64,000 nt of DNA from positions 42,386-106,385 of the forward strand of contig CAZFTX010000001.1 of the NCBI GenBank assembly GCA_964521955.1, read 5' to 3'. Positions within the stretch are counted from its first letter, which is position 1, and each line of letters starts with the position of its first letter. Below, in pieces: positions 17,101-62,233 of this stretch. The notes below the pieces were generated by a model. It searched no databases, was not told the DNA's origin, and worked only from the letters and a program-made list of their open reading frames with translations. The DNA comes from an uncultured Candidatus Saccharibacteria bacterium (lineage in GTDB: Bacteria; Patescibacteriota; Doudnabacteria; UBA920). The translations under genes and the position numbers were made by a program.

Positions 17101-17140
17101 AATCGGCGCCCTCCACATGGAGGCGCGCCGATTTTGATTT
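17101..17140. terminator. bidirectional rho-independent terminator
   Basis: cggcgccctcc-acat-ggaggcgcgccg GC-rich hairpin flanked by gattttgatttt. Lies between the convergent 16767..17090 (+) ORF and the giant gene (-). Confidence 0.6.
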
Positions 17141-20100
17141 TAATCATCTAAAGATATATTTTGATTCACTACGCCTTGATTGTCTACTTTTATTATCTGA
17201 TTTTTCAACAAAATAACTTTATCTTCAACTGTCTGCATTACCCTAAGTATATATTCCCCTTTTGGCGCTTTTAAGAAAAATCTTCCTTTTTCATTTGTCA
17301 TTGCCTTACCCAATACAACAGAGGGGATTGATTTAGGACTAATCTCAATTATTAAGAAGTGTGTAGGATGATTTTGGCTAGTTAAGGAGCCCCAAAGTTT
17401 ACGATGTGGAATAAACCTTTTTAGAACAAATAATAACCCAAAAACACTCACAAAAATTAAGCCAAATAAATTTGGTTTCAACAACAGAGTCAGAAGGGAA
17501 AAACTTGCACTTCCCCAAAATATTATTTCAAGAATCACATGAAAGAAAGTTTCTAAACGTGGATGGAAATTTACATATTTTAACTTACCAGTCTGGTTCC
17601 AATCAAATGCTAAAGGGTCCATGGGAATATTCGGTGACAATACTTCCCCACTTTTTGTAATTTGCATTAATTCACCATGATATAAATTATCAAAAACCCC
17701 GTCCATTTTACCCAAAATCCTAACAGAAGGAAATTGATAATTGGTTTTTTTTGCTTTTATCAAAAAATTTCCTGGCTTATCCATAAAACCAAAACGTCCG
17801 CTTAAATCGGTTATGGCTTGCTCCGTAACTTTACCTGTTTCAAAATTTATCATTTCTACAATTACTGGATCCAAAGGCTGCTTAGTAACAGAGTCATACA
17901 CTGTACCCCAATAGCGACGTCTTCGTCTTAAACCAAAACTACTCATTAAACCTTGTAATGTCGCAACAATATGGAGCCAAAATTCGGTTAAATTGGTAAA
18001 GTTACCAAGCAACCCATATTTTGCCAAACTATATTCCATTACCAAAGAAGAAGGCGCTACAACCAAAGCAGAAACTGAAACTGCTAATTTTGTTTCAAAT
18101 TCTTGTAAAAATAAAGTACTTCCTTGTTTTAGAATTTTTTCTAAAGGTTGTATTGAAGTCTTGGAAACTGTAACTATTGTATCCTTAATAAAGTTGCCGG
18201 CGCTACTCAAACCTGAAACTAAGCCTTCTGAAACCGAAGCTACACTACTGGAAATGTTTTCAAATAAATTTGCTAAAGGTAGGTTGTTTGAAAGAGGCCC
18301 AGGACTAGCATCTGGCACTGGGGGAGTGTTTTGAGGAACCACCACTACAGGAGTTTCAATAGGTGGGTTTTCAATAACAACCACGGGAGGAGAAACTTGT
18401 GGCTCAACAACATTTACCAGTGCATCTTCAGCAGGTTCAACCAACACGCTAGCAAAACTTTCTACACTATTTACACCTCTCGTAACTTTAACTCTTATAG
18501 TATAAGCACCCGCTTTTGCAAAATTACAAACATTTCTATGAGTAACAAATTCGTTAGTTGTTCTTCGGGTTAACTCGTAAATGCCGTCATTTGTACAGTC
18601 ATACTCATAAGTAATTTGCCCTTTTGCTGTCCCAGAAACCGCAACTCTTAAACTTACGTTATTTAAAGGCTCCTCCCCAACCAATTTATCTGACCAAATC
18701 TTGCGATCCTTAGAAACAGTTAGTATAGCTGCTAAGGGCAAATTTTCAACCAAAGGAGGGTTAGGAGTTGGAGTTTTATCTTTAACCAAAAGCTGAATAC
18801 CGGAACTCACAGTTTGTTTTGCTTGCATTTGACTATTAAAATATTTTACATAAACTGTATAAAAACCAGCTCGACATGTTTTTTGTTCACACAAATTCCA
18901 CTGAGTGGACGTTGTGAATAATTGCAAAACCGCATTTTTAAAATCTGGCGTGTTTGAAATTGCCATATATGCAGTATCTGCGGTCGCTTGAAGAGTTAAA
19001 GTAGTTAGACTATCTACAGTTGTGCTCGCTCCAGCGTTTATAACTACACCAAATCCTCCCTCTAAAGGAGTTGGTACACCACCACCACCTCCGCCTCCTC
19101 CACCGCCTCCAGACCCTTCATCGTCTAAAGTGGAACAAGCAGCTGTTGACTGAGTTGTTGTTGAAGTGTAAGCAGTTTCTATATCACTACTGTTTCTAGC
19201 TTTAACTACAAAATCATATGAAGTACCACAAGTCAAGCCAGAAAAAATCTGAGATGTTGAAGAGCTCCAATCAGGACTAGTTGATGCAGTTGCATTTAAA
19301 ACATAGTATTCTGTCCCTGCCGGATTACTATTTGCATTCCACGAAGCAGTCAACTGTGTTTGAGAGTCTTGATTTAGACTTAAAGAAGTTGGTAAGTTTG
19401 CCAAAGTATAAATTGAAATTGTGACAGTAGAAGCATAATTACCGGCAACATCAAACACGTCGGCATAGAAGGTATAGGGAGTATTGGGAGTTAAGCCAGA
19501 AGAAAGCCAAGACAAAGCAGAAGTCGCGGAAGAATTTGTACCTGTAGTGGAGTTATTAAAAACGTAAGAAGCTGTTGCCAAACCAGACAAAGAATCCGAA
19601 GCTCCTGAAATTGTGGCCGTCAAAGAAGTTGGTGAGGTAGTTGCTAAAGTCAAACTACCTGCAGTAGGAACGACAGTGTCTAACTTAAAAGCAACCGCAC
19701 CAGAATTAGCTGTAGCATATGAAGAATTGGCTCCCAAATTATCTATAGTTTTCACTCGCCAATAATAACCATCTGAAGAATCGCTTAAAACCTGTCCAGT
19801 TGTACCCGTTGTGTAAGTTCCCGTACTGGTTGCTTGCCCAACTGTAAAACTAGCGCTACCTTGAGTCGCTGTTGCCGAAGTATAATCCAATAACAAAGTA
19901 GAAAAAGAGGAACTTGTAGAAATTTCAATCTTATATCGCACCGTATTGCCAACATCAGGGTCAGTAAGATTGAAAGTAAAAGTAGGAGTATTATCGTTTA
20001 TCCAACTTCCACCCACAACCGTTGATGGCCCAAGCGAAGTTGGGCTATTGGGTGCGTTATCAGAAATTAAGCTTAACTCTGGTAAATTTGCATACGAATC

Positions 20101-23100
20101 CAATACTGTCCCATCACTGTAAACCATCCTAAAATAATACGTTGCACCAAGTACGACATTACTTGGATCCAATACCCAATCATACTCTATATACTGTCCG
20201 GCATTTACCGCAAAAGGGTTTAAAGCTGTTGGATTCCCTTCCTGATAGGAACCTAAAATATCGGACGAAGGAAGTAAAACTGTAGAAATAGTTGTCGAAG
20301 AAGTTACTGAAGCATTATTATAAAAGTTCCATTGTGTACTGGTTGCACTTTGTTCCGTCTCAAAAGTACTGAAAATTCCTGCACCATTTTTATATTCTGC
20401 CTGTATCCAGCTTGGAGAGCGCACACTTGAAGAAAATCTTAATTCGTCAATTACTCCTGAAAAAAAGCCCATACCAGAAGCGCTGTTTGATCCAAAATAA
20501 TATCGGTCACCACCCGTCCAAAGCGTTGCTATAGAAGCAGCGGTTCCTTCTTCAACTCCGTTTAAATATACCCTCATATTTCCGCTGTTTTGTGCGACAG
20601 CTGTAACATAATACCAATTTGAAGGAGTTAATACGGTAGTTCCAAATACCGTTTTTGTTCCACCGTCAAAGGTATAAGATTCTATTGTGCCGGTAGCATT
20701 CATTCTCAACTGGTGTGACCAAGCAGCACCTGGTCCCGCGCTAGTAGTCCTCACAAAAATATTTATAGCAGTCGCATCAACCGGTTTAATCCATGCTGAA
20801 ATTGTATATGCAGTCGGATCCGTAGCATCGTTAATAATCACCCTATCATTGGAACCATCAAAATATTGTGCGCCATCCGAAATTTCAGTAGATGTGGCAT
20901 TTGGCTCAGTTGTTGAAAGCTTGGTTCCAATAATATTATTTGAAGTTGAGTCGTCTATAGTAGTGGTTGCAGTAGTGTCGTTTAAATGATGGACAAATCT
21001 AAAACCGCTATCCCATACCCCAGTCGTTGTAGAATTATCTGTCGCTCCCGGATTGTTATAATACATCCAAATATAATCGGTACTTGAAGCGCTACTAATT
21101 TGCGGAACTTTTACCCATACTGTTGAAGTTGAAGTTTCGTCCCATTTTTCAATTTCATAATTCAATAGAGTTGACCCGTCTGAGTCAACAAAACGAATAT
21201 CTTGTCCACTGTTTTGGGTTTTACTGTAATCAATATTACTACTTTCATTTAAATTAACCAGTACAGGAAAATCTGTTAAATTTTCGGTTGCAGAAGAATT
21301 ATTAAATACAATTTTCCTTCTATTTAACCAACTGTGGTCATACCATTCATCCGGATTTATACTAACATCGTTCCAATTTGAATTCGTGTATGACGAAACC
21401 TGAAGTTTAAAATTTGAAGTTGTAGTTGATAAATTATAATCGCTAACTAATAAATTCATTCTAAGCCTAATAGGACTTGATGTAGAAATTATTACCACAG
21501 ACGAATTCAAAGCACCTATATCTACTGTTGGCTGTAATTGGTTAATATTTTCATAAAATCTATAATCTCCTTGAGAAATAACCGCTTCAAAAATCCAGCC
21601 CTCATTATTACCCGAATCTGTTGAGTAAGTGCTTTGAGCATTAATATCTGAAGCATTGATATTGTAGGAATCTTTAACATCCAAATAAGAAATGCTTTCT
21701 GTGGCCTGCGAGTCTATCCTGGCTTGGGTGCCTGAGGCAGTACTTCGGATTGATAATACTCCCCCGCTTGCGCCGGTTAAAGTTAAGGTATTGGCAATCG
21801 TCTGAGTAGAAGTTGCGCTAAAGTACAGTGTAGCGGCCGTGGTGCTAGATTTGGTTAAATTATAATAAGTGGAAGTTCCAAAAATATATTGGTCAACGCC
21901 ATTTAAGTTAACAGTACCGTTATTATGGGTAAAGGTACTGGCGTCATTAAAAAAGTTTCCGGCAATATTCAAAGTAGAGGAAGTAGCTGTATAAGTCCCG
22001 CCACCAGATAAAGTCAAATGTTTATAATTGTAGTCTTTTATACTGACACTACTAGAAGTTGAATAAATGGCAGTTGAACCGCTTTGAAATTCTGGATAGG
22101 AACTATTAGTAGTAATAGTCTCCCCTCCCTGAAGTTTAAAAGTACCTCCGTCTTGAACTATTAATGTCCCGGAAGAACCGTTAACTGTAAGATTATATCC
22201 GTTAATATTAAAAGCACCCTCTACTATATTCAAGTCCTGCGAAGCTGCATCTAAAGTCAAAGCTGAGACTAACTGGACTTCGCCCCCTGATTTGTTAACA
22301 GTAATATCCCCATTGAAAATCCCTGTCGCACCAGTAAGATCAAATGTTTGTGTCGCTGAACCACCAAATGTTAGGGCTGTAGTACCGCCGTCAAAACCAG
22401 ACAAAATCCGAACACTCCCCCTTGCTTCCACGGTACCTGTATTCAAACTTCCGTCGGATAAAATTAAATCACCAGTAGCAACTAAAGTGTCATCAGAAGT
22501 AATTGTCCTAGAATAATTTCCCACTGAATTGTTAAACTGGAGTCTTTCAAAAGTCTGACTAGAATTAATATTAATAATACGACCACCTCCATCAGCGGGT
22601 CCAAAAACTGTAGATGAAGCGGAAACAAAAGTTCCCCCAGAAATTGTAAAGTAATCAGTAAAAGTTGTGGTGCTATTGCTACCCACAAAAGAACCGCCAG
22701 ATAAAGTAAAAGAACCAGAAAGTGTAAAAGTATAATTTCCTTGAGTATAAGTCCCGGCCGCCTGCTCCCAACTACCAGAGCCACCACTTCCAATAGTAAC
22801 AGCATAATTTCCAGCATTAGAAATTGGTATAGTACCCAAAAAATCAGGGGTAGTAGTAACACCAAAAAGAGAACTTGCCGTATTAAATAATATAGTATCC
22901 GTTGCGTCCGCTGCACTATTTAATCTTACTATCAAACCCGAACCTCCACTCAAAGACAAAGTTTGATTGACACTATCATTACCAAAATCCAAAACTGTTG
23001 TACCCCCGTCAAATGTAGAAGATTGATAAATATTACCCCTAACATCGACAGTGCCTGTATTCAAACTTCCGTCGGATAAAATTAAATCACCAGTTACAAT

Positions 23101-25749
23101 TAAAGTATCCCCTGATGTAATTGTTCTAGAATAATTTCCCACTGAATTGTTAAACTGGAGTCTTTCAAAAGTCTGACTAGAATTAATATTAATAATACGA
23201 CCACCTCCATCAGCGGGTCCAAAAACTGTAGATGAAGCGGAAACAAAAGTTCCCCCAGAAATTGTAAAGTAATCAGTAAAAGTTGTGGTGCTTGACCCTC
23301 CAACAAAAGTTCCGGAAGCCATTGTAAAATTTCCAATAACAGTAAAAGTATACCCATTTCCCTGAGTAAGCGTACCTGTATAACCTGCGGACATTGTAAG
23401 GCCGGCTATTGTGGTTGTGGTTGCTATTGTCGGACTACAATTAGTTACACAAGTATTGTCAAAAGTTGCTGTATCAGATGAACCAGGCACAATGTCACTA
23501 GACCAATTAGCCGCTGTTGTCCACTGAGCATCTCCACCTCCTCCGTCCCAAACGTATGCCGCATTAAAAGCTTCTGCACTCGCATCGCCGAATTGAAAAT
23601 TGAGTTTATGATTTGCGGTCCGCAAATCTAAATGAGAAACAGTTGCCACTTCACTACAATTCCAGTTTGGATAAAAAATTATATCCCCTTCTAAGATTTG
23701 TGCTCCACTAGTCCTATCTTCTTCACCACAAGTTAAAGTTGCAAACTGCATGTCATTTACAGTAGCCTGGTCCGCTGGAGTAATAATTAAATTTTCAGTA
23801 CCAACAGTTGTAAAATCTACATTCCAATATTCTCCCGCCACCGGTTGGGAGTGAATATTTAAAACTTGTATTTCTACTGTTGGGTCAACCACTACAGGAT
23901 AAACTGCTGTTTTTAGCCAGTTTTTATCTGGAGTCAAAGTAAGTAAATTTTTATTTACAGCAAACTTTAAACTCTTACTAATCTCACCTTCACTGTCAAT
24001 CATGTAAGGAGCAGACAAAACATATAAGAGTTTTAAAGACTTTCCTTTATACCCTTTTTCATAAAGTTGAATTTTTGAATCAGACTCCTGTATATAATCA
24101 AATTCATCTAAATTCAATAAATACCTAAAACGACTCGGGTGGTTTTTATTTTTTAAAACAATTGCTTCTTTCAAGCCCGACTCAGTTATCTCATATTCCA
24201 CATCTGTGTTTAAAAATGCTTCTTTATATGCAACTTTGTTATCAAGCCTCTCAGCAGTTGTAGAAGGCCTAGTGCCTGCCATTACCATCTGTAGTTTAGG
24301 AGATTGGTTCAAAGTGTTATTCCCAGAAAAAACAATTGGATTATCCAAATTTCCTGGCAAACTTAAATCCAAAGCCTCATTGGAAAATGACATCTTCAGA
24401 AACCCTTCGGGATCAAGCAACTTCGGAGACATCTCCAAGAGCTCGGTGTCAGTCAATTCACCCTTTTCTTGTTCATATCTAGTTTCCAACCAAACAGAAT
24501 CTAGAAAGAGTAAATCTTGGTTTTCACCTTTAAATTCAAAAGGTAACTGGTAAGAAAGTCTAATTTTCAACTCCGATACAAATTCAAAGAGTGCTTTTGA
24601 TAATGGTATATTAATAAACCCATTGTTCTGCAAATTCGAAACTCCTTTAGTTAAATCTATCTCAACCAATGACTGCCAAGTCGTGCTGGTAGTTTGATAT
24701 TCAACCAAAAGAACCGCTCCCGGCGTTTTTTTAGAAGCTAACGATAAATTTAAAGCAAAGCTTGAAAGAGTTTCGAAATCAAGTAAAGATAAATCTTGTG
24801 AGGAAAAATTAAAATATTCCAGTTTTGGAGAAGAAATTTTAGAATAAGTCTGTATTGGATCAGACTGCTTTTCAGGAATTATTTCTGAATCTTTATCTAA
24901 GATTATTTCCGGATTATTTAATTCACTAATTAAATTTTCAGATTGTGGTGTTGAAGTAGTAATTATTTCTTGAGTAGTGGTAGAAAGAAGTAAGTCATCA
25001 TAAACCAAATTGGTCTCGGTTGATGTTGGAGTTTTTCCAAAACTTTCATTTTCTGAATCACTTAATTCATCAGCGTTTTCTGAAACTAATGCTTTAAATT
25101 TTTGATTGGTTGAAAATAAATCTTTATCATAAAAATTTGTCGTTGTAGAATTTCTCTGTTCCTCAATTTGGGATACAGGTTCTTCTTTTTTATTTTCAAC
25201 ATCTAAATCTGTTTGTACCAAAATAATTTCTTGTGTCCATGCTGTTATTTCTGTTGAGCTACTTTTTACTTCCCCATCTGTTATCTTTTTTTGTTCTTCT
25301 GAAGTTTTATTTAGAGTTGGATCCTTTAATTCAGTTTTTAAATTTTCAGTTTCTAAAACACTGTCCATACTTGAAGTAGACAAAGGAATTTCTAAAGGTT
25401 CAGAAATTTGATTTTCTATTCCATTTTTAAAATTAAGAACCGTAGAATTAAAATCAGTAAACTCACTTAAAGACTGTTCTGGTCCTAAGTCGTTTTTAAA
25501 TGCCTGATTTGGATTTATCCATGAAAGTGTGGAAAGTGTATCTGTTGCAGTTATTGTTACTGAGCCTTTGGGAAAATATTGTTGAATAACAATATTACTT
25601 TCTAAAATTTCCGCATCTTTCAAAGCTTCGTTTGAAATTACCGAGGCAGCAAAAATTTGAGTCGGTATTGAAAATACAAGTAAAAAAATTACAAAATTTT
25701 TACATGTTGTAATGAATGTTTTTTTAATTTTATTTAGAATTATTTTCAC
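17140..25749 (-). CDS. giant secreted/surface protein (2869 aa) with LamG/concanavalin-like domain, beta-rich repeats and a C-terminal membrane-anchor module
   Basis: N-terminal signal peptide. Two near-identical internal repeats of about 100 aa. A LamG-like segment (…WYYVTAVAQNSGNMRVYLNGVEEG…IDELRFSS). A poly-Gly linker. The C-terminal ~350 aa contain CarboxypepD_reg-like domains plus TM helices, homologous to ORF 30924..31868. Confidence 0.85.
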   Translation of the reverse strand: MKIILNKIKKTFITTCKNFVIFLLVFSIPTQIFAASVISNEALKDAEILESNIVIQQYFPKGSVTITATDTLSTLSWINPNQAFKNDLGPEQSLSEFTDFNSTVLNFKNGIENQISEPLEIPLSTSSMDSVLETENLKTELKDPTLNKTSEEQKKITDGEVKSSSTEITAWTQEIILVQTDLDVENKKEEPVSQIEEQRNSTTTNFYDKDLFSTNQKFKALVSENADELSDSENESFGKTPTSTETNLVYDDLLLSTTTQEIITTSTPQSENLISELNNPEIILDKDSEIIPEKQSDPIQTYSKISSPKLEYFNFSSQDLSLLDFETLSSFALNLSLASKKTPGAVLLVEYQTTSTTWQSLVEIDLTKGVSNLQNNGFINIPLSKALFEFVSELKIRLSYQLPFEFKGENQDLLFLDSVWLETRYEQEKGELTDTELLEMSPKLLDPEGFLKMSFSNEALDLSLPGNLDNPIVFSGNNTLNQSPKLQMVMAGTRPSTTAERLDNKVAYKEAFLNTDVEYEITESGLKEAIVLKNKNHPSRFRYLLNLDEFDYIQESDSKIQLYEKGYKGKSLKLLYVLSAPYMIDSEGEISKSLKFAVNKNLLTLTPDKNWLKTAVYPVVVDPTVEIQVLNIHSQPVAGEYWNVDFTTVGTENLIITPADQATVNDMQFATLTCGEEDRTSGAQILEGDIIFYPNWNCSEVATVSHLDLRTANHKLNFQFGDASAEAFNAAYVWDGGGGDAQWTTAANWSSDIVPGSSDTATFDNTCVTNCSPTIATTTTIAGLTMSAGYTGTLTQGNGYTFTVIGNFTMASGTFVGGSSTTTFTDYFTISGGTFVSASSTVFGPADGGGRIININSSQTFERLQFNNSVGNYSRTITSGDTLIVTGDLILSDGSLNTGTVDVRGNIYQSSTFDGGTTVLDFGNDSVNQTLSLSGGSGLIVRLNSAADATDTILFNTASSLFGVTTTPDFLGTIPISNAGNYAVTIGSGGSGSWEQAAGTYTQGNYTFTLSGSFTLSGGSFVGSNSTTTFTDYFTISGGTFVSASSTVFGPADGGGRIININSSQTFERLQFNNSVGNYSRTITSDDTLVATGDLILSDGSLNTGTVEARGSVRILSGFDGGTTALTFGGSATQTFDLTGATGIFNGDITVNKSGGEVQLVSALTLDAASQDLNIVEGAFNINGYNLTVNGSSGTLIVQDGGTFKLQGGETITTNSSYPEFQSGSTAIYSTSSSVSIKDYNYKHLTLSGGGTYTATSSTLNIAGNFFNDASTFTHNNGTVNLNGVDQYIFGTSTYYNLTKSSTTAATLYFSATSTQTIANTLTLTGASGGVLSIRSTASGTQARIDSQATESISYLDVKDSYNINASDINAQSTYSTDSGNNEGWIFEAVISQGDYRFYENINQLQPTVDIGALNSSVVIISTSSPIRLRMNLLVSDYNLSTTTSNFKLQVSSYTNSNWNDVSINPDEWYDHSWLNRRKIVFNNSSATENLTDFPVLVNLNESSNIDYSKTQNSGQDIRFVDSDGSTLLNYEIEKWDETSTSTVWVKVPQISSASSTDYIWMYYNNPGATDNSTTTGVWDSGFRFVHHLNDTTATTTIDDSTSNNIIGTKLSTTEPNATSTEISDGAQYFDGSNDRVIINDATDPTAYTISAWIKPVDATAINIFVRTTSAGPGAAWSHQLRMNATGTIESYTFDGGTKTVFGTTVLTPSNWYYVTAVAQNSGNMRVYLNGVEEGTAASIATLWTGGDRYYFGSNSASGMGFFSGVIDELRFSSSVRSPSWIQAEYKNGAGIFSTFETEQSATSTQWNFYNNASVTSSTTISTVLLPSSDILGSYQEGNPTALNPFAVNAGQYIEYDWVLDPSNVVLGATYYFRMVYSDGTVLDSYANLPELSLISDNAPNSPTSLGPSTVVGGSWINDNTPTFTFNLTDPDVGNTVRYKIEISTSSSFSTLLLDYTSATATQGSASFTVGQATSTGTYTTGTTGQVLSDSSDGYYWRVKTIDNLGANSSYATANSGAVAFKLDTVVPTAGSLTLATTSPTSLTATISGASDSLSGLATASYVFNNSTTGTNSSATSALSWLSSGLTPNTPYTFYADVFDVAGNYASTVTISIYTLANLPTSLSLNQDSQTQLTASWNANSNPAGTEYYVLNATASTSPDWSSSTSQIFSGLTCGTSYDFVVKARNSSDIETAYTSTTTQSTAACSTLDDEGSGGGGGGGGGGGVPTPLEGGFGVVINAGASTTVDSLTTLTLQATADTAYMAISNTPDFKNAVLQLFTTSTQWNLCEQKTCRAGFYTVYVKYFNSQMQAKQTVSSGIQLLVKDKTPTPNPPLVENLPLAAILTVSKDRKIWSDKLVGEEPLNNVSLRVAVSGTAKGQITYEYDCTNDGIYELTRRTTNEFVTHRNVCNFAKAGAYTIRVKVTRGVNSVESFASVLVEPAEDALVNVVEPQVSPPVVVIENPPIETPVVVVPQNTPPVPDASPGPLSNNLPLANLFENISSSVASVSEGLVSGLSSAGNFIKDTIVTVSKTSIQPLEKILKQGSTLFLQEFETKLAVSVSALVVAPSSLVMEYSLAKYGLLGNFTNLTEFWLHIVATLQGLMSSFGLRRRRRYWGTVYDSVTKQPLDPVIVEMINFETGKVTEQAITDLSGRFGFMDKPGNFLIKAKKTNYQFPSVRILGKMDGVFDNLYHGELMQITKSGEVLSPNIPMDPLAFDWNQTGKLKYVNFHPRLETFFHVILEIIFWGSASFSLLTLLLKPNLFGLIFVSVFGLLFVLKRFIPHRKLWGSLTSQNHPTHFLIIEISPKSIPSVVLGKAMTNEKGRFFLKAPKGEYILRVMQTVEDKVILLKNQIIKVDNQGVVNQNISLDD
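22425..23300. repeat. intragenic direct repeat: two ~265-bp copies (22425-22690 and 23035-23300), essentially identical, period ~610 bp
   Basis: Read directly: identical stretches including ...tcccactgaattgttaaactggagtctttcaaaagtctgactagaattaatattaataatacgaccacctccatcagcgggtccaaaaactgtagatgaagcggaaacaaaagttcccccagaaattgtaaag... occur twice. They also produce identical spurious antisense ORFs. Confidence 0.8.
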
Positions 25750-26147
25750 TCTTTATGTCTGTAAAAGTTTATCTAAATTTTAAACAATTTTCTCATTTAA
25801 TATATTAATTATGTCATAAAATAATAACTTTTACTGACTAATTTTAATTTGTTTTTTACATTATTTAAAACAATTTTTACATGAAACCAATAAATATTAT
25901 TTTTTAAAATACTTTTAATATTTTACTATGAAAAAGTATAGAAATTATTTAATTTACACCACAAGGTTTTCTTAGATATTTTTTAGAAAATCTCAAACAA
26001 TTATATACAATATATGAAACACGATTTTTCTATAATTTTTACTACATATTAATCATTTATTAGAACATTATTATTGCGAATTATCCACAACAAAAAAACG
26101 CCCTTCCTTAAATGTAAGAAAGGGACGTTTTTTATATAAAACTTAAT

Positions 26148-26831
26148 TTAGAGTTTAATTTTTACCCCAGGGCCCATAGTAGAGTTCAAAGTAATAGAGG
26201 CTATAAACTGACCTTTAAAAGCTGCTGGTTTAGAAGCCATTAAGGCTGAATAAAAAGCTTTTAAATTTTCTAATAGCTTTGAAGTTTCAAAATCGCTTTT
26301 ACCAATAATCTGATGAATGTTACCTGAGTCATCGTTTTTAAAGTTTACTTTACCACCGGCAATTTCCTTTACCAACTCTGCTATATTCTCCCCTACCGTT
26401 CCGGTTTTAGGGTTTGGCATTAGACCCCTAGTTCCTAAAATCTTGGCGATCTGTGCCAATTTTGGCATCATCGCAGGTTCTGCAACGGCTACTTCAAAGT
26501 CAGTCTTTTCAGTTTCTTTAATAGTTTTAACCAACTCTTCGCCACCTACCAAGAAGGCTCCGGCTGCCTTAGCTTCTTTTTCCTTACTTTCGGTAACGAA
26601 AGCCGCTACCTTTTTTGACTTACCTGTTCCGTTTGGAAGCTTGGCTGTACCTCTTACGGCTTGTTCGGTTTTTTTAGCTTCAATGTTAGTTCTGACATGA
26701 ACTTCTATACTACCTACAAACTTAGTATTTGCAGTTTTTTTTGCTAACTCAATACCTTCTTCTGCGCTGTAAACTTTTTCACTGTCAACTAACTCATTGT
26801 TCGCTTTAACTCGCTTTGCTAACTTTGTCAT
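26148..26831 (-). CDS. rplA: 50S ribosomal protein L1
   Basis: 227 aa; GTRGLMPNPKTGTV and the L1 fold signature. Confidence 0.9.
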   Translation of the reverse strand: MTKLAKRVKANNELVDSEKVYSAEEGIELAKKTANTKFVGSIEVHVRTNIEAKKTEQAVRGTAKLPNGTGKSKKVAAFVTESKEKEAKAAGAFLVGGEELVKTIKETEKTDFEVAVAEPAMMPKLAQIAKILGTRGLMPNPKTGTVGENIAELVKEIAGGKVNFKNDDSGNIHQIIGKSDFETSKLLENLKAFYSALMASKPAAFKGQFIASITLNSTMGPGVKIKL

Positions 26832-26963
26832 ATATTTTTTCCTTCGTGGTATTCGATCTTAAAGATCTCCCACAAATTAATAATTCTTAATTTAATTAAT
26901 TATTTGATTGAATGATTAAATTTTAACAACCTTGTTAATCTTGATCATTCATAGTCAATTGTT

Positions 26964-30221: not shown

Positions 30222-30267
30222 TTTTTGCTAGATACCTTATTACATTATAAAATTTAATCACTTATGT

Positions 30268-30395
30268 ATTGAGTCAAATCCGAGGCAAAATGCGCGGATG
30301 ATTTGAGCCGTAGTTGACCTACGGTGAGAATCAACGCAAGCATTTTAACAAAGGAGTTGACCAAAGCTATTTTTAGAATCGGACTTTGCCCGAGC
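30268..30395 (+). repeat. intergenic repeat family A, copy 1 (structured, ~130-165 nt)
   Basis: Shares gagtcaa(a/g)t(c/t)cgaggcaaaatg(c/t)gc(g/a)gatgatt(t/c)gagccgtag-N4-5-ctacggtgagaa..caacgcaagcattttaac...ccaaagctactttagaatc + terminal hairpin with the copies at 48908-49058 and 51604-51749. This copy lacks the internal ccccaaaggggtctggctccgccag segment. Confidence 0.7.
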
Positions 30396-30497
30396 AAAAA
30401 AATAGCGTTACATAAGTTGATTTTTGTCTTTTTTAAAAGGCCTTGCAGGGCCTTTTTATAGAAACATTATACAAAACCTTTCAAAGTCTGTCAAATA

Positions 30498-30893: not shown

Positions 30894-30923
30894 ACGCTCT
30901 ATTTTAAATTTAGCTTAATTATA

Positions 30924-32693: not shown

Positions 32694-32766
32694 ACAACAA
32701 TTATACCCCATTCAAAAAAGACTGAATAGTACTTTAATTCTCAACGCGCGATAAAATTTAGGCATG

Positions 32767-32859
32767 GGTTCAAATCCTAGGCAAAATGTGCGCCTGCCTG
32801 CCGGCAAGGCAGGGCTGATTCGATAAATAAATAGCATCCTGAGGATCGGGCTTTGCCCG
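32767..32859 (+). repeat. intergenic repeat family A, diverged copy
   Basis: Keeps the 5' (ttcaaatcctaggcaaaatgtgcgc) and 3' (atcgggctttgcccgg) ends of family A with a different internal core (cctgcctgccggcaaggcaggg hairpin). Confidence 0.45.
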
Positions 32860-32918: not shown

Positions 32919-34865
32919 CTAATTATTTTCATACCACCACTTTAGTGCCTCCCTAACAACCGGCACTGCTGCTGCGTGTCCTTCCCCACCTGCTTCCACT
33001 AAAACAGTGATAACAATCTCCGGGTCATCAAAAGGAGCGTAAGCGGTAAACCAAGCGTGAGTACGACTCGGGTCTGAACCGTCAAACTGAGAAGTTCCCG
33101 TTTTTCCTGCTGAGACAAAAGGTAAATCTAAAAGTTTTACACCTGAACCATATTCCACTGTCTGCCTCATCCCTTCTTGCACCATACGCAAGTTTTCATC
33201 ACTTGCAAATTTTTCCACAATTACTTCGGGGTTACTTTTGAAAACCACCTTTCCCTGCTCGTCTAAAATTTCTGACAATATTTTAGGTTTGTAACCGACA
33301 CCGTCATTTGCAATAATCGCTGTCCACATTGTAACCTGCAAAGGCGTAGTTAGCATATCACCCTGACCAATCCCTACATGATAAGTATCCCCTAAATACC
33401 ATTTACTTAAAATAGGGTTATTTTTAAAGTATTCAGACTTCCACTTTGGATCTGCTACTACTCCGGGTTTTTCGCCCCGCATGTCTATGCCGGTAAGTTT
33501 GTCTAAATTAAATTTTCTATAATACTCAGCTAATTTTTCCGCTCCTAGACCCTGTATTGGGGAACTAGGATGACCTCCTGCGAGAATATAAAAATAGATA
33601 TCACTACTTTTAGCAATTGCAGAGTAAACATTAACGGGACCAAGTCCATCCCTTTTCCAACTTACAAAATTATAAGCAATACTTGGGTCAAACTGGTTCG
33701 GTATAACCAAAACCCCTCTGTCCACAACCACAGTGTTTTCAGTAACGGTTTTTTCTTCCAAAGCAGCAAGTGCTACCATAGGTTTAACCGTTGACCCGGG
33801 CGGATAAGTTCCTGCAATACTTCGGTTGAACAATGGCAAAGTCTTGTCATTTAAAAGCTCTTGATATTCATGAGTTTTAATTCCATGAGCGAAAAGATTA
33901 TTATTAAATCCAGGTAAACTTAGCAAAGCCAGCACTTCCCCATTTTTTGGATTCATTGCTACAGCAACTGCCTTGGTTTTAGGATTATTTTTTGTAAGAT
34001 CAGCAAACAACTTTTTCTGCAAACCGGCGTCAATATTCAATTTAGCGGTCATTCCTGGAACTGGTTTTTTCTCACCCAATACACTTAGAAGCCTGCCGGA
34101 AGCATCCACCTCAATTAAATTTTCCCCATTTATACCATGTAAATAATTTTCATACTGCCTTTCTATGCCAGTCTTACCGGTAAAGTCAATACTACCATAC
34201 TTAGCTTTGTCTAAGACTAAAGCTTCTTCAGAGTTTAAAAACCCGGTATAACCGACAGTATGAGAAAAAACTAAGGGGTTTAAGTAATCTCTCACCGGAA
34301 TTTTTTGAATAGAAAATCCCGGAAACTCTGCGGCTTTAGTTTCAAAAAGTATACTCTCTTCTGAGCTTAAATCTTGTTTAATAATTAGAGGTTCTAAAGA
34401 CCGACTCCCAGCTTTTTCCAATTTTGCACTTGCCTCGTTCCGATCAAAAGCAAACAACGCTGAGAGCTTGTCTAGTTCTTCGTTTAAAGTTTCTTTCGGT
34501 AAGTCAAAAGGCACAACAACTAAGTTAAAACTAGCCGTATTTTGAACTAAAACCTCACCTTTTCTATCCTGGATTAACCCTCTAGGAGCTAAAATGACTT
34601 GTCTTCTTAAACGATTTTCTTCTGACATCAAACTAAAATTTTGCCCTCTTACAATTTGTAAGGTAAAAACTCTCGCTACCAAAACAAAAAAACCCGCAAA
34701 TAAAATTACAGATAAAAAAGTCAGTTTCGGCTTTAATCGGTCAGAATCAAAAACCCCCTCTTTCACAGATGCCTGAAAGTCAGCGGCAGATTCCTCCCAT
34801 TCCAAGCCCTTTGACTGGGAAGAAGAGTAGGAAGTTGTAACTTCAAAAGGATCTTTCATAAACAA
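32919..34865 (-). CDS. mrdA: penicillin-binding protein 2 (peptidoglycan D,D-transpeptidase)
   Basis: 648 aa. N-terminal TM, dimerisation domain, transpeptidase motifs STVK, SSD(i) and KTGT. Synteny mreBCD-mrdA. Confidence 0.88.
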   Translation of the reverse strand: MFMKDPFEVTTSYSSSQSKGLEWEESAADFQASVKEGVFDSDRLKPKLTFLSVILFAGFFVLVARVFTLQIVRGQNFSLMSEENRLRRQVILAPRGLIQDRKGEVLVQNTASFNLVVVPFDLPKETLNEELDKLSALFAFDRNEASAKLEKAGSRSLEPLIIKQDLSSEESILFETKAAEFPGFSIQKIPVRDYLNPLVFSHTVGYTGFLNSEEALVLDKAKYGSIDFTGKTGIERQYENYLHGINGENLIEVDASGRLLSVLGEKKPVPGMTAKLNIDAGLQKKLFADLTKNNPKTKAVAVAMNPKNGEVLALLSLPGFNNNLFAHGIKTHEYQELLNDKTLPLFNRSIAGTYPPGSTVKPMVALAALEEKTVTENTVVVDRGVLVIPNQFDPSIAYNFVSWKRDGLGPVNVYSAIAKSSDIYFYILAGGHPSSPIQGLGAEKLAEYYRKFNLDKLTGIDMRGEKPGVVADPKWKSEYFKNNPILSKWYLGDTYHVGIGQGDMLTTPLQVTMWTAIIANDGVGYKPKILSEILDEQGKVVFKSNPEVIVEKFASDENLRMVQEGMRQTVEYGSGVKLLDLPFVSAGKTGTSQFDGSDPSRTHAWFTAYAPFDDPEIVITVLVEAGGEGHAAAVPVVREALKWWYENN

Positions 34866-34869
34866 GAGT

Positions 34870-34990
34870 TTGGAGGGAACAACCTATAGGTTTTTCCCTT
34901 CCAACGTCCCGCCTCTGGCGGGACTGCTTCCCTTTTCCATAGCGTGTCCTTTCGGTCAGGCAAAGCCTGAACCTCCAGGACAAGCTATAA
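34870..34990 (+). repeat. intergenic structured repeat family B, copy 1 (contains the 24-bp palindrome GGGAACAACCTATAGGTTTTTCCC)
   Basis: Homologous in reverse orientation to 36551-36668. Shared segments are aacctataggtttttcccttccaacg, ctgc.tcccttttccata and the terminal gtcct..ttcgg.cagg...ggac. The internal GC hairpins differ in sequence but both still pair (gtcccgcc-tct-ggcgggac against tgccgac-ttc-gtcggca). Confidence 0.7.
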
Positions 34991-35017
34991 TTAGAATTTA
35001 TTAATTACCAATAAATA

Positions 35018-35554
35018 TTAGAACTTTTTTGTAGACAAATATTTTAAATTTACGTACTTTAAATATTCTACCAATTTATAAATTAAATACGAAACAAATA
35101 AACTGTAAAAGGCTTCAATTATAATCTGAATAAAATTTCCCCGTATGCTTAAGGTAAAATCTTCTAAATTCACAAAAACCAAGAAATTAGAATAAATCCA
35201 AAAAAGTAAATAAAACAAAGCAATACTTCCTAAAATAAAAGGTGCCCATGACTTCAAACTTAAACCTATGGAAAAAAAATAATTACTTAAAATATGAAAC
35301 CCAACACTCAAGAATAAAAAACTAAACATGTAACCCCCAAACAAACTACCATAATATGAATCTAAAAATAAACCGGAAACAAACGCAACAAATAAAAAAC
35401 TGTAATCTTTGTCTTTAAAAATTGCCAAAACCAAGACAAAAAGTAAAAGCAGATTTGGAAACGCCCCATATATTGAAAAAAGCGGCTGCAGTATCACTGT
35501 TAAAATAAATAAAACAAAAATTGTAAATAGGTAAAGCAGGTATTTCATATTCAA
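35018..35554 (-). CDS. mreD: rod shape-determining protein MreD
   Basis: 178 aa polytopic membrane protein located between mreC and mrdA. Confidence 0.7.
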   Translation of the reverse strand: MNMKYLLYLFTIFVLFILTVILQPLFSIYGAFPNLLLLFVLVLAIFKDKDYSFLFVAFVSGLFLDSYYGSLFGGYMFSFLFLSVGFHILSNYFFSIGLSLKSWAPFILGSIALFYLLFWIYSNFLVFVNLEDFTLSIRGNFIQIIIEAFYSLFVSYLIYKLVEYLKYVNLKYLSTKKF

Positions 35555-35624
35555 ATTATGTTTATAATCCTAATTATCCGAATATTATATTTGGGGCATT
35601 AGGATAGAATTCGGATCATTCGGA

Positions 35625-36425
35625 TTATGGTTTTACTACGAAGACAAAGTTAAGATTGTGAAAATCTATCGGACTAATAATAATTGCCTTTTTAAAAAGC
35701 TCATTACTACTTGAAACCAAATCCCCGATTTCTCCGACTAAAATATTTTTTGGAATTTTCTCACTTATTCCAGCAGTAATCACCAATGACCCTTTTTCAA
35801 TTTTGTCGTTTTGCGGGAGCTGATCAATAACCAAACCCGAACCAAAAGAACCCTTTACTAAACCTTGAGAATTTCCGGTTAAAATTTTTCCATCAGTTAA
35901 AAAATTAGACCCTGTAGCAAGCAAAACCGTACTTAAATTTTTACCTGCGCGAATAACTTTACCAATCAAATAACCTTGCGAAATAACACCCATACCTTCA
36001 CTAATTCCCGCCTCTTCCCCACAATTAATATACACTGAATCGCTCAATCCTATAACCGTTTCAGAAAGTGCTACGCAAGGTATCAACTTTAAATTTGAAG
36101 ACTTTACAAATTGCAACTCTTTTCTTAATGCCTCGTTTTCTTTTTTTTCTTGCTCATACAAAACCAACTCTTGTCTAAGTTGCCCTACTTCTAAAACTAA
36201 TTCAGTATTTTCGTTTGCAATTTGTCTTAAATGATAAAGACTGTAAAAAAATTCTTTCACCGGATAACCCACAGTCTTTGCTATGGAAATAAACGGTCTT
36301 GGGGCATACAGAAAAACTTTTTGAATACTTTCAAGTTTGCCAATTGAATTTAAAAATACAAAAACAAAAACAAGAAATAAAAAAGCAAAGAAAATTGCAA
36401 AAAGTCTGGTGTAAATAAATCGCAT
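35625..36425 (-). CDS. mreC: rod shape-determining protein MreC
   Basis: N-terminal TM, coiled coil (LRQELVLYEQEKKENEALRKELQ) and a C-terminal beta domain. Confidence 0.8.
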   Translation of the reverse strand: MRFIYTRLFAIFFAFLFLVFVFVFLNSIGKLESIQKVFLYAPRPFISIAKTVGYPVKEFFYSLYHLRQIANENTELVLEVGQLRQELVLYEQEKKENEALRKELQFVKSSNLKLIPCVALSETVIGLSDSVYINCGEEAGISEGMGVISQGYLIGKVIRAGKNLSTVLLATGSNFLTDGKILTGNSQGLVKGSFGSGLVIDQLPQNDKIEKGSLVITAGISEKIPKNILVGEIGDLVSSSNELFKKAIIISPIDFHNLNFVFVVKP

Positions 36426-36550
36426 AAGAAAATGACAAAAATAAATAAAAATTAAGAAAATGACAAAAATAATTTACATCAAATTTTTAACTTTCGCCTA
36501 TGAATGTTTATTGGTTTGACCAAATCCTAATACTGTTAAACTCAATAGAA

Positions 36551-36668
36551 GTCCGAAAGGTCAGGATTCCCCTGCCTGTAGGACTACATTATGGAAAAGG
36601 GAGGCAGCGATGCCGACGAAGTCGGCAGAGCGTTGGAAGGGAAAAACCTATAGGTTTTTCACTCCAAG
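36551..36668 (-). repeat. intergenic structured repeat family B, copy 2 (inverted; palindrome GGGAAAAACCTATAGGTTTTTCAC)
   Basis: See family B copy 1; this is its reverse complement, located between mreC and mreB. Confidence 0.7.
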
Positions 36669-36673
36669 ATGTT

Positions 36674-37729
36674 TTACTTCGGAATCATTCCAAAATCAGC
36701 AGGGACTAAAACATCCTTCAAAGTTTCCAAATCCTCAACTACAACACCTGTGCCTCTAACCACACAAGTAAGCGGATCTTCCGCAATAGTGATTGGCATA
36801 GCGGTGGCCTCTCCAACTAGTTTGTCTAAATCTCTTAAGAGCGCCCCGCCCCCGGCTAGTATTATTCCTCGGTTCATAATGTCAGAAATTATTTCCGGCG
36901 GAATCTCTTCTACAACACTTTTAATACTATTAACAATTGACTTTAAACTATGCATTAAAGCTTCCCTAGCTTGAGTATCTGAAATTGTTACTTCTTTAGG
37001 TAATCCAGTAACCAAATCCCTTCCGCGCATTTGGGTATACATTGCCTGTTCTTGGGGATAAGCACTCCCTACTCTAATTTTAACGTCTTCAGCAGTTCTC
37101 TCTCCCAAAAGTAAATTAAAATGCTCCCTTGCATACTGCATAATATTTTGATTCATTTCATCCCCGGCAATACGTAAAGACTTGGAAACCACTATTCCAC
37201 CCAAAGAAATAACTGCTATTTCCGTTGTTCCTCCACCAATATCAACTATCATAGAACCAGTTGCGTCTTGAACCGGCAACCTACTACCAATAGCTGCAGC
37301 CATAGGTTCTTCTATTAAAAACGCGGCTGATGCTCCTGCGTTTATAGCAGCATCTACCACAGCTCTTTTTTCTACTTCCGTTACACCGGAAGGTATTCCA
37401 ATAACCACCCTGGGTCTGCGTAAAAAAGCGTAAGTCTGACTATGGACTTTGTCTATAAAATACCTCAGCATGGCTTCTGTCACTTCAAAATCCGAAATCA
37501 CCCCGTCAACCAAAGGACGAGTCGCTACTATATAAGGAGGAGTACGACCAACCATTTTTCTGGCATCGTTACCAATTGCCAAAATTTGTTTAGTCCTTTG
37601 ATTAATAGCCACAACACTAGGCTCGTTAATCACAATCCCTTTGCCTTTTACATACACAAGAGTATTAGCAGTACCAAGGTCAATGCCAATGTCTTTTGAA
37701 AAATGTTGGTAGAGTCTATCAAAAATCAT
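36674..37729 (-). CDS. mreB: rod shape-determining actin homolog MreB
   Basis: IGIDLGTANTLVYV phosphate-1 motif and DIGGGTTE phosphate-2 motif. Start set to the ATG for MIFDRLY; the GTG-extended ORF would run into a palindrome. Confidence 0.95.
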   Translation of the reverse strand: MIFDRLYQHFSKDIGIDLGTANTLVYVKGKGIVINEPSVVAINQRTKQILAIGNDARKMVGRTPPYIVATRPLVDGVISDFEVTEAMLRYFIDKVHSQTYAFLRRPRVVIGIPSGVTEVEKRAVVDAAINAGASAAFLIEEPMAAAIGSRLPVQDATGSMIVDIGGGTTEIAVISLGGIVVSKSLRIAGDEMNQNIMQYAREHFNLLLGERTAEDVKIRVGSAYPQEQAMYTQMRGRDLVTGLPKEVTISDTQAREALMHSLKSIVNSIKSVVEEIPPEIISDIMNRGIILAGGGALLRDLDKLVGEATAMPITIAEDPLTCVVRGTGVVVEDLETLKDVLVPADFGMIPK

Positions 37730-37738
37730 TTGTGTTTT

Positions 37739-37774
37739 ACCCAGCACCACTTTTTTAAAAAAGTGGTGCTGGGT
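37739..37774. terminator. perfect 17-bp inverted repeat (acccagcaccactttttt|aaaaaagtggtgctgggt), probably a bidirectional terminator
   Basis: Exact palindrome read in the sequence, about 110 nt downstream of proS and just upstream of the mreB start. The T/A runs form the centre. Confidence 0.55.
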
Positions 37775-40264: not shown

Positions 40265-40344
40265 ATATATAAACTTTTCTATTTCTTTCTATTATTCTTA
40301 ATTTTTGTCAATTTTGTTCAATTTTATTTATTTTTGTCATTACT

Positions 40345-48485: not shown

Positions 48486-48543
48486 TTTATGTCTTTAATA
48501 AATTATGTTCAATTTTATTTAATTTTGATCAATTTTGTCATTT

Positions 48544-48825
48544 CTAGAGTATTTCTCTAACCTTATAAAACTCATCTTTCACTTCGGGTGCTTGGGCTAA
48601 TATTTCCTCTCTATTATTACCAAGTTTGGACTCATCCATTCTTTGCACATTGACTAAACCGGTTACTTGAGAAACCTCGTCCAACCCTTCCGTATTCAGC
48701 CCTTGCAACTCTTTTACATACTCCAAAACAGCGGAAACTCCGCTTTGGAGCACTTCCACTTCTTCGTCTGAAAGCTCAATTCGAGCTAAAAGAGCAACTT
48801 TTTCTACTTCTTCTTTAGTGAGCAT
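48544..48825 (-). CDS. gatC: Asp/Glu-tRNA amidotransferase subunit C
   Basis: 93 aa; VEKVA.LARIEL..EE pattern; gatCAB order. Confidence 0.85.
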   Translation of the reverse strand: MLTKEEVEKVALLARIELSDEEVEVLQSGVSAVLEYVKELQGLNTEGLDEVSQVTGLVNVQRMDESKLGNNREEILAQAPEVKDEFYKVREIL

Positions 48826-48907
48826 AAGAGCACTAATTATAGCAAAGCCTCAAAAGCCTTTCAAATGCTTAATACTAAAAAATATCAACTATCACAAAGT
48901 CTATATA

Positions 48908-49058
48908 TTGAGCCAAGTTCGAGGCAAAATGCGCGGATGATTCGAGCCGTAGTGAACCTACGGTGAGAAACAACGCAAGCATTTTAACGAAGCCCCCAAA
49001 GGGGTCTGGCTCCGCCAGAAAATTGGCCAAAGCTACTTTAGAAATCGGGCTATGCCCG
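48908..49058 (+). repeat. intergenic repeat family A, copy 2
   Basis: Full-length copy between secA and gatC, including the cccccaaaggggtctggctccgccag segment. Confidence 0.7.
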
Positions 49059-49087
49059 TTTCAAAAGTAGCGGTATATTGACTTTAA

Positions 49088-51457: not shown

Positions 51458-51603
51458 TTAACTTTGTATATTTTTGTTTCTAAAGTTTGCTTATTTTGAG
51501 ATAATTATACCATAAAAACCGCAGATGTGCTATAATAAATTTACTTTAAATTAACTCGCACGCGAAGAAAAAGCGTTGTCGAAGAAATAGAATTTTACGC
51601 ATT

Positions 51604-51749
51604 AAGTCAAGTTCGAGGCAAAATGTGCAGATGATTCGAGCCGTAGTCTACTACGGTGAGAAGAAACGCAAACATTTTAACAAAGCCCCAAAGGGGTCTG
51701 GCTCCGCCAGAAAATTGACCAAAGCTACTTTTAGAATCTGGCTCAGCCA
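51604..51749 (+). repeat. intergenic repeat family A, copy 3
   Basis: Full-length copy between secA and lemA. The terminal hairpin is ctggctcagccag, against gggctatgccc in copy 2. Confidence 0.7.
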
Positions 51750-51764
51750 GTTCAGAAAATAGCA

Positions 51765-57246: not shown

Positions 57247-57321
57247 ACCCAAACTTGATACAATATTAGCATAAAGTAATGTCCTTCATTTTTATTTAAT
57301 TTTGATCAATTTTGGTCAATT

Positions 57322-62006: not shown

Positions 62007-62098
<92 letters not shown>

Positions 62099-62233
62099 CG
62101 ACCTCTCCAAATACTTACATATTTTACTTAAAAAAAGCCTATTGGTCAATAAAAATACGGACGGGGGTCAGAGGCCTTAGCCTTCAGCCCGCCGTCCGCG
62201 AATTTCGGTCTTGCGAGAGAACTGTGGTTGCGG

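Follow-up and report, generated by a model that had tools for sequence, protein, structure and literature searches.

Two inverted copies of a structured repeat in the mre operon

The cell-shape operon mreB-mreC-mreD-mrdA, located in a 64-kb stretch of contig CAZFTX010000001.1 (hereafter the window, with a G+C content of 37.7%), harbours two copies, A and B, of a structured repeat of about 120 nt. The genes around both copies all lie on the minus strand, and the copies occupy two spacers of the operon in opposite orientations (Table 1). Each copy comprises an AT-rich terminal motif, a long irregular hairpin (P3), an unpaired linker, a short variable hairpin (P2), and an imperfect hairpin (P1); the strand reading these parts in this order is called orientation 1, and its complement orientation 2. 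Copy A lies between the mreD stop codon (35018-35020) and the mrdA start codon (34859-34857), with its P1 end 10 nt upstream of the latter, while P1 of copy B starts 6 nt past the mreB stop codon (36674-36676), and mreC follows after an AT-rich spacer of 122 nt. Since the encoded MreB shares 84-85% identity with proteins from metagenome-assembled genomes of Candidatus Doudnabacteria and Patescibacteria, the host was assigned to Candidatus Doudnabacteria, within the Candidate Phyla Radiation (CPR).

The two copies are about 81% identical as inverted repeats, and a MAFFT alignment of 34860-35000 on the plus strand with the reverse complement of 36541-36680 gave a column identity of 80%. The local alignment score of the full copies was 90 against 16.0 +/- 2.5 in 1000 dinucleotide shuffles, and with the palindrome arm removed it was 38 against 14.2 +/- 2.2 (z = 10.7), a value reached by 0 of 1000 shuffles. 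A preliminary description of this DNA had located the two inverted copies correctly and allowed that, the palindrome aside, they might align no better than shuffled sequence; the likeness evidently extends along their length. The other features that it listed, namely the conserved segment TCCCTTTTCCAT, the terminal GTCC...GGAC stem, and a central GC hairpin that differs in sequence yet folds in both copies, were also recovered. The extent of the element required adjustment, as the AT-rich conserved terminal motif (CTATAATTAG, or CTATTGAGT in copy B) stretches the element slightly further, to 34993 in copy A and 36540 in copy B.

The palindrome AACCTATAGGTT occurs exactly twice in the 64 kb, with a chance expectation of 0.22 (two occurrences were also met in 2 of 100 shuffles), and forms the top of a longer imperfect hairpin, TTGGAGGGAAcAACC-TATA-GGTTTTTCCCTTCCAA. 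All four strands, that is, both senses of A and B, fold much better than shuffles (z = -4.4 to -7.3). No copy beyond these two was present in the window.

Table 1. Repeat copies, their parts, host genes, and other repeats and motifs. Positions without a prefix refer to the window.
Feature	Position	Strand	Description
Copy A	34870..34993	-	operon-sense strand is orientation 1: terminal motif, P3, linker, P2, P1
Copy A P1	34870..34904		imperfect hairpin, 15/16 nt, TTGGAGGGAACAACC-TATA-GGTTTTTCCCTTCCAA; includes the palindrome; one bulge, one internal mismatch
Copy A P2	34907..34923		GC hairpin TCCCGCC-TCT-GGCGGGA; variable module of the repeat family
Copy A linker	34924..34940		conserved, unpaired; CTGCTTCCCTTTTCCAT on the plus strand, ATGGAAAAGGGAAGCAG on the sense strand
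Copy A P3	34941..34993		long irregular hairpin (TAGC.TGTCCT...AGGACA.GCTA), then AT-rich terminal motif CTATAATTAG
Copy B	36540..36667	+	orientation 1 on the plus strand; operon-sense strand is orientation 2
Copy B terminal motif and P3	36540..36584		ACTCAATAG, then P3 hairpin GTCC...GGAC
Copy B linker	36591..36607		conserved, ATGGAAAAGGGAGGCAG
Copy B P2	36611..36627		TGCCGAC-GAA-GTCGGCA
Copy B P1	36633..36667		TTGGAAGGGAAAAACC-TATA-GGTTTTTCACTCCAA; 35/35 identical in paralog L135 and ortholog L106; P1 also identical in L133
Copy in Doudnabacteria bin-3275	L001:2907-3035		mreB-mreC spacer; orientation opposite to copy B
Copy in L089	L089:4186-4303		between groEL and metK (named from translations); sense strand is orientation 2; P1 starts 4 nt past the groEL stop
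Copy in L090	L090:287-412		orientation 1; ends 8 nt ahead of the start codon of a nusA-like gene (identified by the N-terminal sequence alone)
Copy in L135	L135:623-749		between ABC ATPase and permease genes (by sequence reading); sense strand is orientation 2; P1 starts 6 nt past the ATPase stop
mreB	36674..37750	-	Pfam MreB_Mbl, 1.3e-140; upstream of copy B
mreC	35625..36425	-	Pfam MreC, 2.6e-30
mreD	35018..35554	-	weak Pfam MreD match, 9.8e-05, plus synteny; upstream of copy A
mrdA (PBP2)	32919-34865 (true ATG at 34859)	-	Pfam PBP_dimer and Transpeptidase; downstream of copy A
Family A copies	30255-30405; 48890-49075; 51585-51765; 32754-32791 (partial); L133:9567-9674		second structured intergenic repeat
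Phased motifs	36429-36467	-	directly upstream of start codons
Phased motifs	40293-40336; 48494-48547; 57291-57334; L106:1480-1525; L136:8395-8440; L137:5320-5362		directly upstream of start codons

A small repeat family in Candidatus Doudnabacteria

Comparison with other contigs shows that the two window copies are members of a small, previously undescribed family of three-hairpin repeats. A covariance model (R1) covering the linker, P2, and P1 was used to score the members and about 630 kb of collected sequence. The members scored 53-96 bits, including 96.5 bits for copy A and 76.8 bits for copy B, and nothing else exceeded 19.3 bits apart from reverse-strand palindrome matches to the same P1. 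Four further independent copies were found in L001, L089, L090, and L135 (Table 1), with model scores of 68-96 bits. The L001 copy occupies the mreB-mreC spacer and ends 2 nt ahead of the mreC start codon, and the one in L090 is preceded by what reads by eye as a terminator-like hairpin and T-run of the upstream gene. Between genomes, the elements are 71-89% identical.

Altogether, the family comprises six independent insertions in four gene contexts, with their orientation relative to host transcription split 3:3. All six loci sit between co-directional genes, and in each of them the P1 end is 2-10 nt from a start or stop codon. The restriction to cell-shape operon spacers that had seemed curious in the preliminary description reflected the view of a single 64-kb window, as copies also occur between groEL and metK, in an ABC transporter operon, and ahead of a nusA-like gene. 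Moreover, the apparent tie to the mre operon is partly a product of how loci were retrieved; among 80 MreB-anchored loci, the element was found in L001 only. The exact 26-nt core had no match in the genome contig collection. A gapped metagenome pattern, TGGAAAAGNGANGCAG-gap-CGTTGGA, gave 23 matches, of which only L089 and L090 were real. Two scans of viral contigs returned chance matches only (best model score 19 bits), and the next-closest lineages, L136-L140, contained no family member. All copies seen so far come from Candidatus Doudnabacteria (CPR/Patescibacteria).

Several reading frames run through the GC-rich element without a stop (window 36500-36709 on the plus strand, L104:2-163, and L135:627-782), and gene callers therefore annotate spurious "hypothetical proteins" of 50-70 aa. 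The peptide profile of the most consistently open frame matched one such protein (P0241), which led to L135. Three independent Logan contigs (L104:1, L105:1, and L133:1, corresponding to window 36662) begin inside P1 of copy B. Such breaks would be explained if the same genomes contained another copy with 31 nt or more of P1 in common, like the one in L135.

Three hairpins and a near-invariant linker

The minimum-free-energy folds of all copies consisted of three independent hairpins and the linker, with no end-to-end pairing. The AT-rich terminal motif varies among the copies (AATTAATAG, AATTATAG, CTCAATAG, and AATTAAAAAG) and is followed by P3. The purine linker ATGGAAAAGGGARGCAG is strongly conserved and near-invariant, with no variation among the copies in its core TGGAAAAG.GA.G, and is predicted to be unpaired in most of them; only in L089 does RNAfold let it pair, with sequence lying upstream. 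P1, TTGGAAGGGAAAAACC-loop-GGTTGTTCCCTCCAA, has 15-16 bp with a conserved bulge and mismatch. Its loop is TATA in the window and L135 and 5 nt long (TCTCC or TTCTC) in L001, L090, and L089, its stem top reads AACC/GGTT, ACCC/GGGT, or AAACCC/GGGTTT, and the loop and stem changes of L001, L090, and L089 are compensated.

In the model alignment, 91% of the cells were paired and the covariation score was 0.154 against 0.069 in shuffles (reached by 0 of 500), a comparison made on an alignment that was itself fitted to the model. Three of the six P2 pairs are changed on both sides, and L001 and L090 show compensatory differences in both P2 and P3. P2 is also the dispensable module, ranging from 8 bp to almost nothing: it is nearly gone in L135, and in the copy B ortholog (L106) it is replaced by a shorter segment without inverted repeat, for which RNAfold still gives a weak 5-bp stem. 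These patterns show that P1, P2, and P3 are maintained by compensatory changes, and that the structure is conserved rather than the sequence of the palindrome.

At gathering thresholds, Rfam 15 recognized only a tRNA (62020-62108) in the whole window, and the best overlap in a permissive scan (E <= 10) of 34700-36800 was psRNA2, with 19.2 bits against a threshold of 65, so that the permissive matches were at chance level. An intrinsic-terminator scan, which accepts loops of 3-8 nt only and cannot score the irregular P3, flagged no site in copies A and B; U-rich tails are seen behind P3 in L001 and L089 but not in copy A. Several other ideas were set aside. An ATG in the linker opens 18-20-aa reading frames in copies A and B, but a stop occurs at codon 4 in L001 and L090, so a small peptide was rejected. 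A likeness to signal recognition particle RNA, RNase P RNA, and the ssoA CS-6 motif was noticed by eye, and no covariance model supported any of them. An argument from Shine-Dalgarno sequences for the start codons next to the element was dropped since such motifs precede few genes here: a crude count with a liberal definition, over the window open reading frames of at least 100 aa, found a Shine-Dalgarno-like motif before about 12 of 51 starts, most leaders being plain AT-rich.

Insertion rather than ancestry

L002 and L003, which are as close as L001 by MreB identity, have unrelated mreB-mreC spacers without the element. In the relatives L107 and L108 (MreC 56% identical), the operon is compact, with an mreB-mreC spacer of 41 nt and a 4-nt overlap of mreD and mrdA, and the two genes likewise overlap by 4 nt in L137-L139. 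These comparisons indicate that the element was inserted at the mre junctions and is not ancestral there.

No family member was found in L136 (PBP2 66% identical), in which an unrelated GC-rich palindrome of 105 nt, CACCCCCACACCAATT...AATTGGTGTGGGGGT (L136:9888-10000; -47.3 kcal/mol, z = -6.4), ends 8 nt before the mrdA start codon and a different long hairpin, ACTGCCC...GGGCAGT (L136:8325-8443), follows mreB. The mreD-mrdA and mreB-mreC junctions therefore acquire GC-rich hairpins of unrelated sequence repeatedly.

The ends of the element were compared in six copies. Alignment of the first 30 nt with the reverse complement of the last 30 nt gave local scores of 4-9, no higher than those of shuffled sequence (means of 4.7-5.5 and maxima of 9-13), so no terminal inverted repeats were detected. 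The target-site duplications for which the preliminary description had suggested checking the flanks were not found either: the longest word common to the 14-nt flanks was 2-5 nt long and different in every copy. The element is therefore not a classical miniature inverted-repeat transposable element (MITE). The P1-side flanks (GAG, ATC, CAT, TTC, AAT, and CAC) show no conserved tetranucleotide and no GTAG rule. Pfam annotation of eight operon-region genes turned up no transposase, and no search aimed at transposases was made.

Conservation of copy A in a close relative

A relative represented by L106, L133, and L134, whose MreC and PBP2 are 91% identical to those of the window, keeps both copies in the same place and orientation. 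Between the window and L133, element A (whose ortholog is present in L133 and L134) is 93.4% identical at the nucleotide level (8 of 122 positions differ) and its short, non-repeated flanks of 26 and 10 nt are 92-100% identical, compared with 85% for mreC, 87% for mreD, 82.5% for mrdA (82.5-86.6% for the flanking genes as a group), 63% for the spacer at 30894-30923, and 51% for the mreC-mreD spacer (35555-35624). The last of these contains indels, evolves much faster than any other part of the operon, and was taken as the local measure of neutral change. Four-fold sites differ at 38% overall, 34% in mreD, and 54% in mrdA, and the probability of at most 8 differences in 122 positions at p = 0.34 is 5e-13. 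Within 2.7 kb, no other stretch of 180 nt is as well conserved as that around copy A, and the conserved tract matches the spacer, coding identity falling to 75-88% on either side. Conservation of copy A above the neutral level indicates strong purifying selection on it.

A probable role as RNA hairpins in operon transcripts, and alternative explanations

The substitutions within the stems bear on the level at which selection acts. In the ortholog of copy A, four of the five stem substitutions are C-to-T changes giving G.U pairs in the transcribed strand. P1 of this ortholog folds fully only as sense RNA (-50.6 kcal/mol, vs -43.9 kcal/mol for the other strand), and its top is lost on both strands when it is folded as DNA. 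P3 of copy B differs from its ortholog by one compensatory change from A-U to G-C. Although the sample is small, this pattern favours selection on RNA hairpins in mRNA.

The explanation favoured here, with moderate confidence, is a low-copy dispersed structured repeat of about 120 nt that is retained for an RNA-hairpin function in operon transcripts. Copies have been placed, in either orientation, in short spacers that separate co-directional genes. Because terminal inverted repeats and target duplications are lacking, a trans-acting, structure-recognising enzyme is inferred as the likeliest mobilising agent. After insertion, a copy is retained by purifying selection, most likely for the action of its hairpins on polycistronic mRNA, where they could protect or delimit transcript segments or uncouple the translation of adjacent cistrons; such a role would work in both orientations. 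The preliminary description had argued for a DNA-level element rather than a strand-specific RNA. The 3:3 split of orientations, the opposite orientations of the element between mreB and mreC in two genomes (copy B and L001), and its absence there from closer and more distant relatives support a dispersed repeat over a strand-specific cis-regulatory RNA. As the copy A substitutions keep pairing only in the transcribed strand, an RNA-level role of the hairpins is nonetheless likely.

Several observations weigh against this explanation. The G.U argument comprises four substitutions in one ortholog pair (4 vs 1; one-sided binomial p ~0.19). Copy B is only modestly better conserved (87-94%) than its surroundings, where four-fold sites of mreB differ by just 15% and the adjoining spacer is 89% identical. 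Copy number is low, with two in 64 kb and none in the other related or pattern-matched loci scanned, and the strict metagenome pattern yielded only two copies, so that the high-copy behaviour of REP elements or MITEs is not in evidence. No filled/empty polymorphism was seen for this repeat between the closest genomes, and the support for its mobility is indirect. Finally, generic hairpin functions do not explain the near-invariant linker or the irregularities of P1.

These last features would be accounted for by a portable CPR RNA module with a specific, orientation-dependent function, an alternative that is considered unlikely. In orientation 1, the element would be a structured 5' leader whose unpaired AAAGGGAGG linker serves as a ribosome standby or loading site in a genome with few Shine-Dalgarno sequences, and closed P2 and P1 would bring the linker close to a start codon located 2-10 nt further on. 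Orientation 2 would provide protective or attenuating hairpins with an anti-Shine-Dalgarno-like CCUCCCUUUUCC strand, 4-6 nt past the stop codon. In this view, either the ribosome or a dedicated protein would recognise the near-invariant linker and the irregular features of P1. If so, the family would be a new class of structured regulatory RNA and not a generic repeat.

Alternatively, the copies could be paralogous genes of an independently transcribed small RNA family, placed on either strand, which is also rather improbable. The functional product would be either the orientation-1 RNA (P3, purine-rich linker, P2, P1) or its complement, which runs from P1 and P2 through a CU-rich linker resembling an anti-Shine-Dalgarno sequence (CCUCCCUUUUCC) to P3 with a U-rich tail, and the unpaired linker would be a seed or protein-binding site. 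The linker is indeed the best conserved segment and predicted to be unpaired in most copies, and orientation 1 gives the more stable fold in all seven copies regardless of the host strand, which may simply be due to its purine-rich composition. U-rich tails follow P3 in orientation 2 of L001 (CUUUUUAAUUAU) and L089 (GGUUUUGUUUAA), and the L090 element, lying behind the apparent terminator of the upstream gene, would therefore have to be transcribed from a promoter that coincides with the AT-rich terminal motif or adjoins it. Against such genes, promoter-like and terminator-like sites were no more frequent than expected by chance (9 promoter-like sites vs 7.0 +/- 2.7 in shuffles), and only one of the former, a 9/12 match at 36616-36588 on the minus strand, overlaps an element. 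No conserved -35 hexamer was recognized, and the promoter-side flank is coding sequence in L001. P1 has no U-tract. Furthermore, either choice of strand would place half the copies antisense to essential genes, P2 can be lost, and there is no Rfam relative.

A selfish DNA repeat without host function, with the similarity of orthologs due to gene conversion or a short recombination tract, is likewise given a low probability. Recombination does occur, as the identity between the window and L133 is a mosaic ranging from 82% to 98.9%: it is 98.9% over 3.6 kb (~23260-26900 vs L133:9700-13335), 89.9% over the next 3.3 kb, and 82-83% in the mre-folD part, which suggests recent recombination between the two lineages. 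P1 of copy B is identical at 35/35 positions in the paralog L135, as concerted evolution would give, P2 decays in L135 and in the copy B ortholog, and another repeat of the same genomes (family A, below) shows presence/absence polymorphism. However, the non-repeated flanks of copy A share its conservation, and the conserved tract coincides with the spacer while the coding sequence on both sides diverges. The stem substitutions preserve pairing, and the diagnostic differences that set A apart from B persist in both lineages, so the two have not been homogenised.

The possibility that A and B anneal within the mreBCD-mrdA transcript, in a duplex of about 110 bp that loops out mreC-mreD and is an RNase III site or couples the expression of flanking genes, appears very unlikely. 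Cofolding of sense B with sense A gave -153.0 kcal/mol against -105.8 kcal/mol for two local folds (-131.5 vs -88.6 kcal/mol in the relative), and the relative retains both copies together. Nevertheless, the complementarity of A and B is not co-evolving: it amounts to 0.81 for the window and 0.80 for the relative, and pairing a copy of one with a copy of the other gives 0.79-0.82. The compensatory P3 change of copy B is confined to that copy and favours a local hairpin, and L001, L089, L090, and L135 each have a single copy with no partner in 1.1 to 8.9 kb of sequence.

Least probable is the reading, also raised in the preliminary description, of a duplex-DNA operator or nucleoid-protein site at which a dimeric regulator on the 24-bp palindrome controls the cell-shape operon. 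In its favour, the window palindrome has 20 bp without a mismatch and adjoins gene boundaries, and the motif TGGAA..GGGA recurs in the linker and both P1 arms. However, the half-site centre-to-centre spacing varies with loops of 4 or 5 nt (TATA, TCTCC, TTCTC), some of them non-palindromic, and the arms change by compensation, which therefore speaks against a fixed duplex operator, while the copies in unrelated operons (groEL, ABC transporter, nusA-like) and about 85 nt of further conserved structure would be left unexplained.

Other features of the same genomes

The mre operon is flanked by folD downstream and by genes for a class II aminoacyl-tRNA synthetase (Pfam tRNA-synt_2b) and an M50 protease upstream; the mrdA start given in Table 1 agrees with the gene call in L104 and L133. 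The minus strand of the window also contains one open reading frame of 2742 aa (17140-25368), with internal direct repeats at 22411-22710 and 23029-23328 that are 89% identical.

A second structured intergenic repeat, family A, is about 90-185 nt long and has the core GAGGCAAAATGCGCGGATGATT.GAGCCGTAG...CTACGGTGAG. Its L133 copy lies between the DUF5671 and L1 genes, a site that is free of the repeat in the window, and the window copy between a response-regulator gene and secE is unmatched at the corresponding site of L133. L009 contains a weaker relative.

The motifs TTTGTCA(A/T)TTT and TTGATCAATTTT recur with a phasing of about 10 bp directly upstream of start codons, and they are conserved ahead of mreC in several Doudnabacteria lineages. 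Inverted copies of them follow the mreB stop codon in L136, so the whole spacer there folds into a long hairpin. They may represent a promoter, a regulator site, or a leader element.

Comparison with known intergenic repeats

Full-text literature searches returned no description of dispersed structured repeats in CPR genomes. The presence of a GC-rich insert of 120 nt within an essential cell-wall operon shows that such tiny, streamlined genomes tolerate it, and its stricter conservation than the adjacent genes at one locus points to a function. The element is consequently a candidate for organising expression within operons in CPR bacteria, whose genes here mostly lack Shine-Dalgarno sites. 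In practical terms, the repeat breaks short-read assemblies, as in the three Logan contigs that end inside it, and seeds spurious gene calls. The kind of element is familiar from REP, ERIC, and BOX, its specific role here being an inferred one.

Hairpins of REP/BIME, ERIC, and Correia elements act on polycistronic mRNA. ERIC (IRU) elements of Enterobacteriaceae and Vibrio, with units of about 127 bp, resemble the Doudnabacteria element in size, low to moderate copy number, conservation across lineages, and location in transcribed spacers within operons or next to the ends of reading frames in either orientation, a setting common to all six loci. ERIC folds into RNA hairpins that alter the stability of the flanking mRNA. 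In contrast to the three hairpins and unpaired linker found here in a CPR phylum, ERIC is one long imperfect palindrome, and the likeness is one of behaviour. The BOX elements of Streptococcus pneumoniae (boxA-boxB-boxC) are likewise modular and intergenic, with a variable, dispensable middle module, a stable predicted structure, and no transposase of their own. BOX differs in exceeding 100 copies per genome and in its tandemly repeated boxB, whereas copy number is low here and P2 is never repeated, and the sequences are unrelated.

REP/BIME elements, mobilised by RAYT (Y1 HUH) transposases, are extragenic imperfect hairpins that share conserved irregularities, the lack of terminal inverted repeats and target duplications, and the occurrence in both orientations. 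They stabilise upstream mRNA and, close to a stop codon, lower the expression of the upstream gene. REP sequences measure 20-40 nt, carry a 5' GTAG, and reach hundreds of copies, many of them arranged in inverted pairs with only a few nt in between, unlike the element of about 120 nt with no GTAG rule and two copies in 64 kb. Correia elements (CREE) of Neisseria and MITEs are also small non-coding spacer inserts found in both orientations and co-transcribed, with hairpins as possible RNase III substrates, but their terminal inverted repeats of 26 bp and their target duplication (TA or another) have no counterpart in the Doudnabacteria element. The designation "REP/MITE-like" in the preliminary description thus suits a dispersed structured repeat and does not extend to a classical MITE. 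On these comparisons, the element appears closest in behaviour to ERIC and BOX, and it resembles REP in having neither terminal inverted repeats nor target-site duplications.

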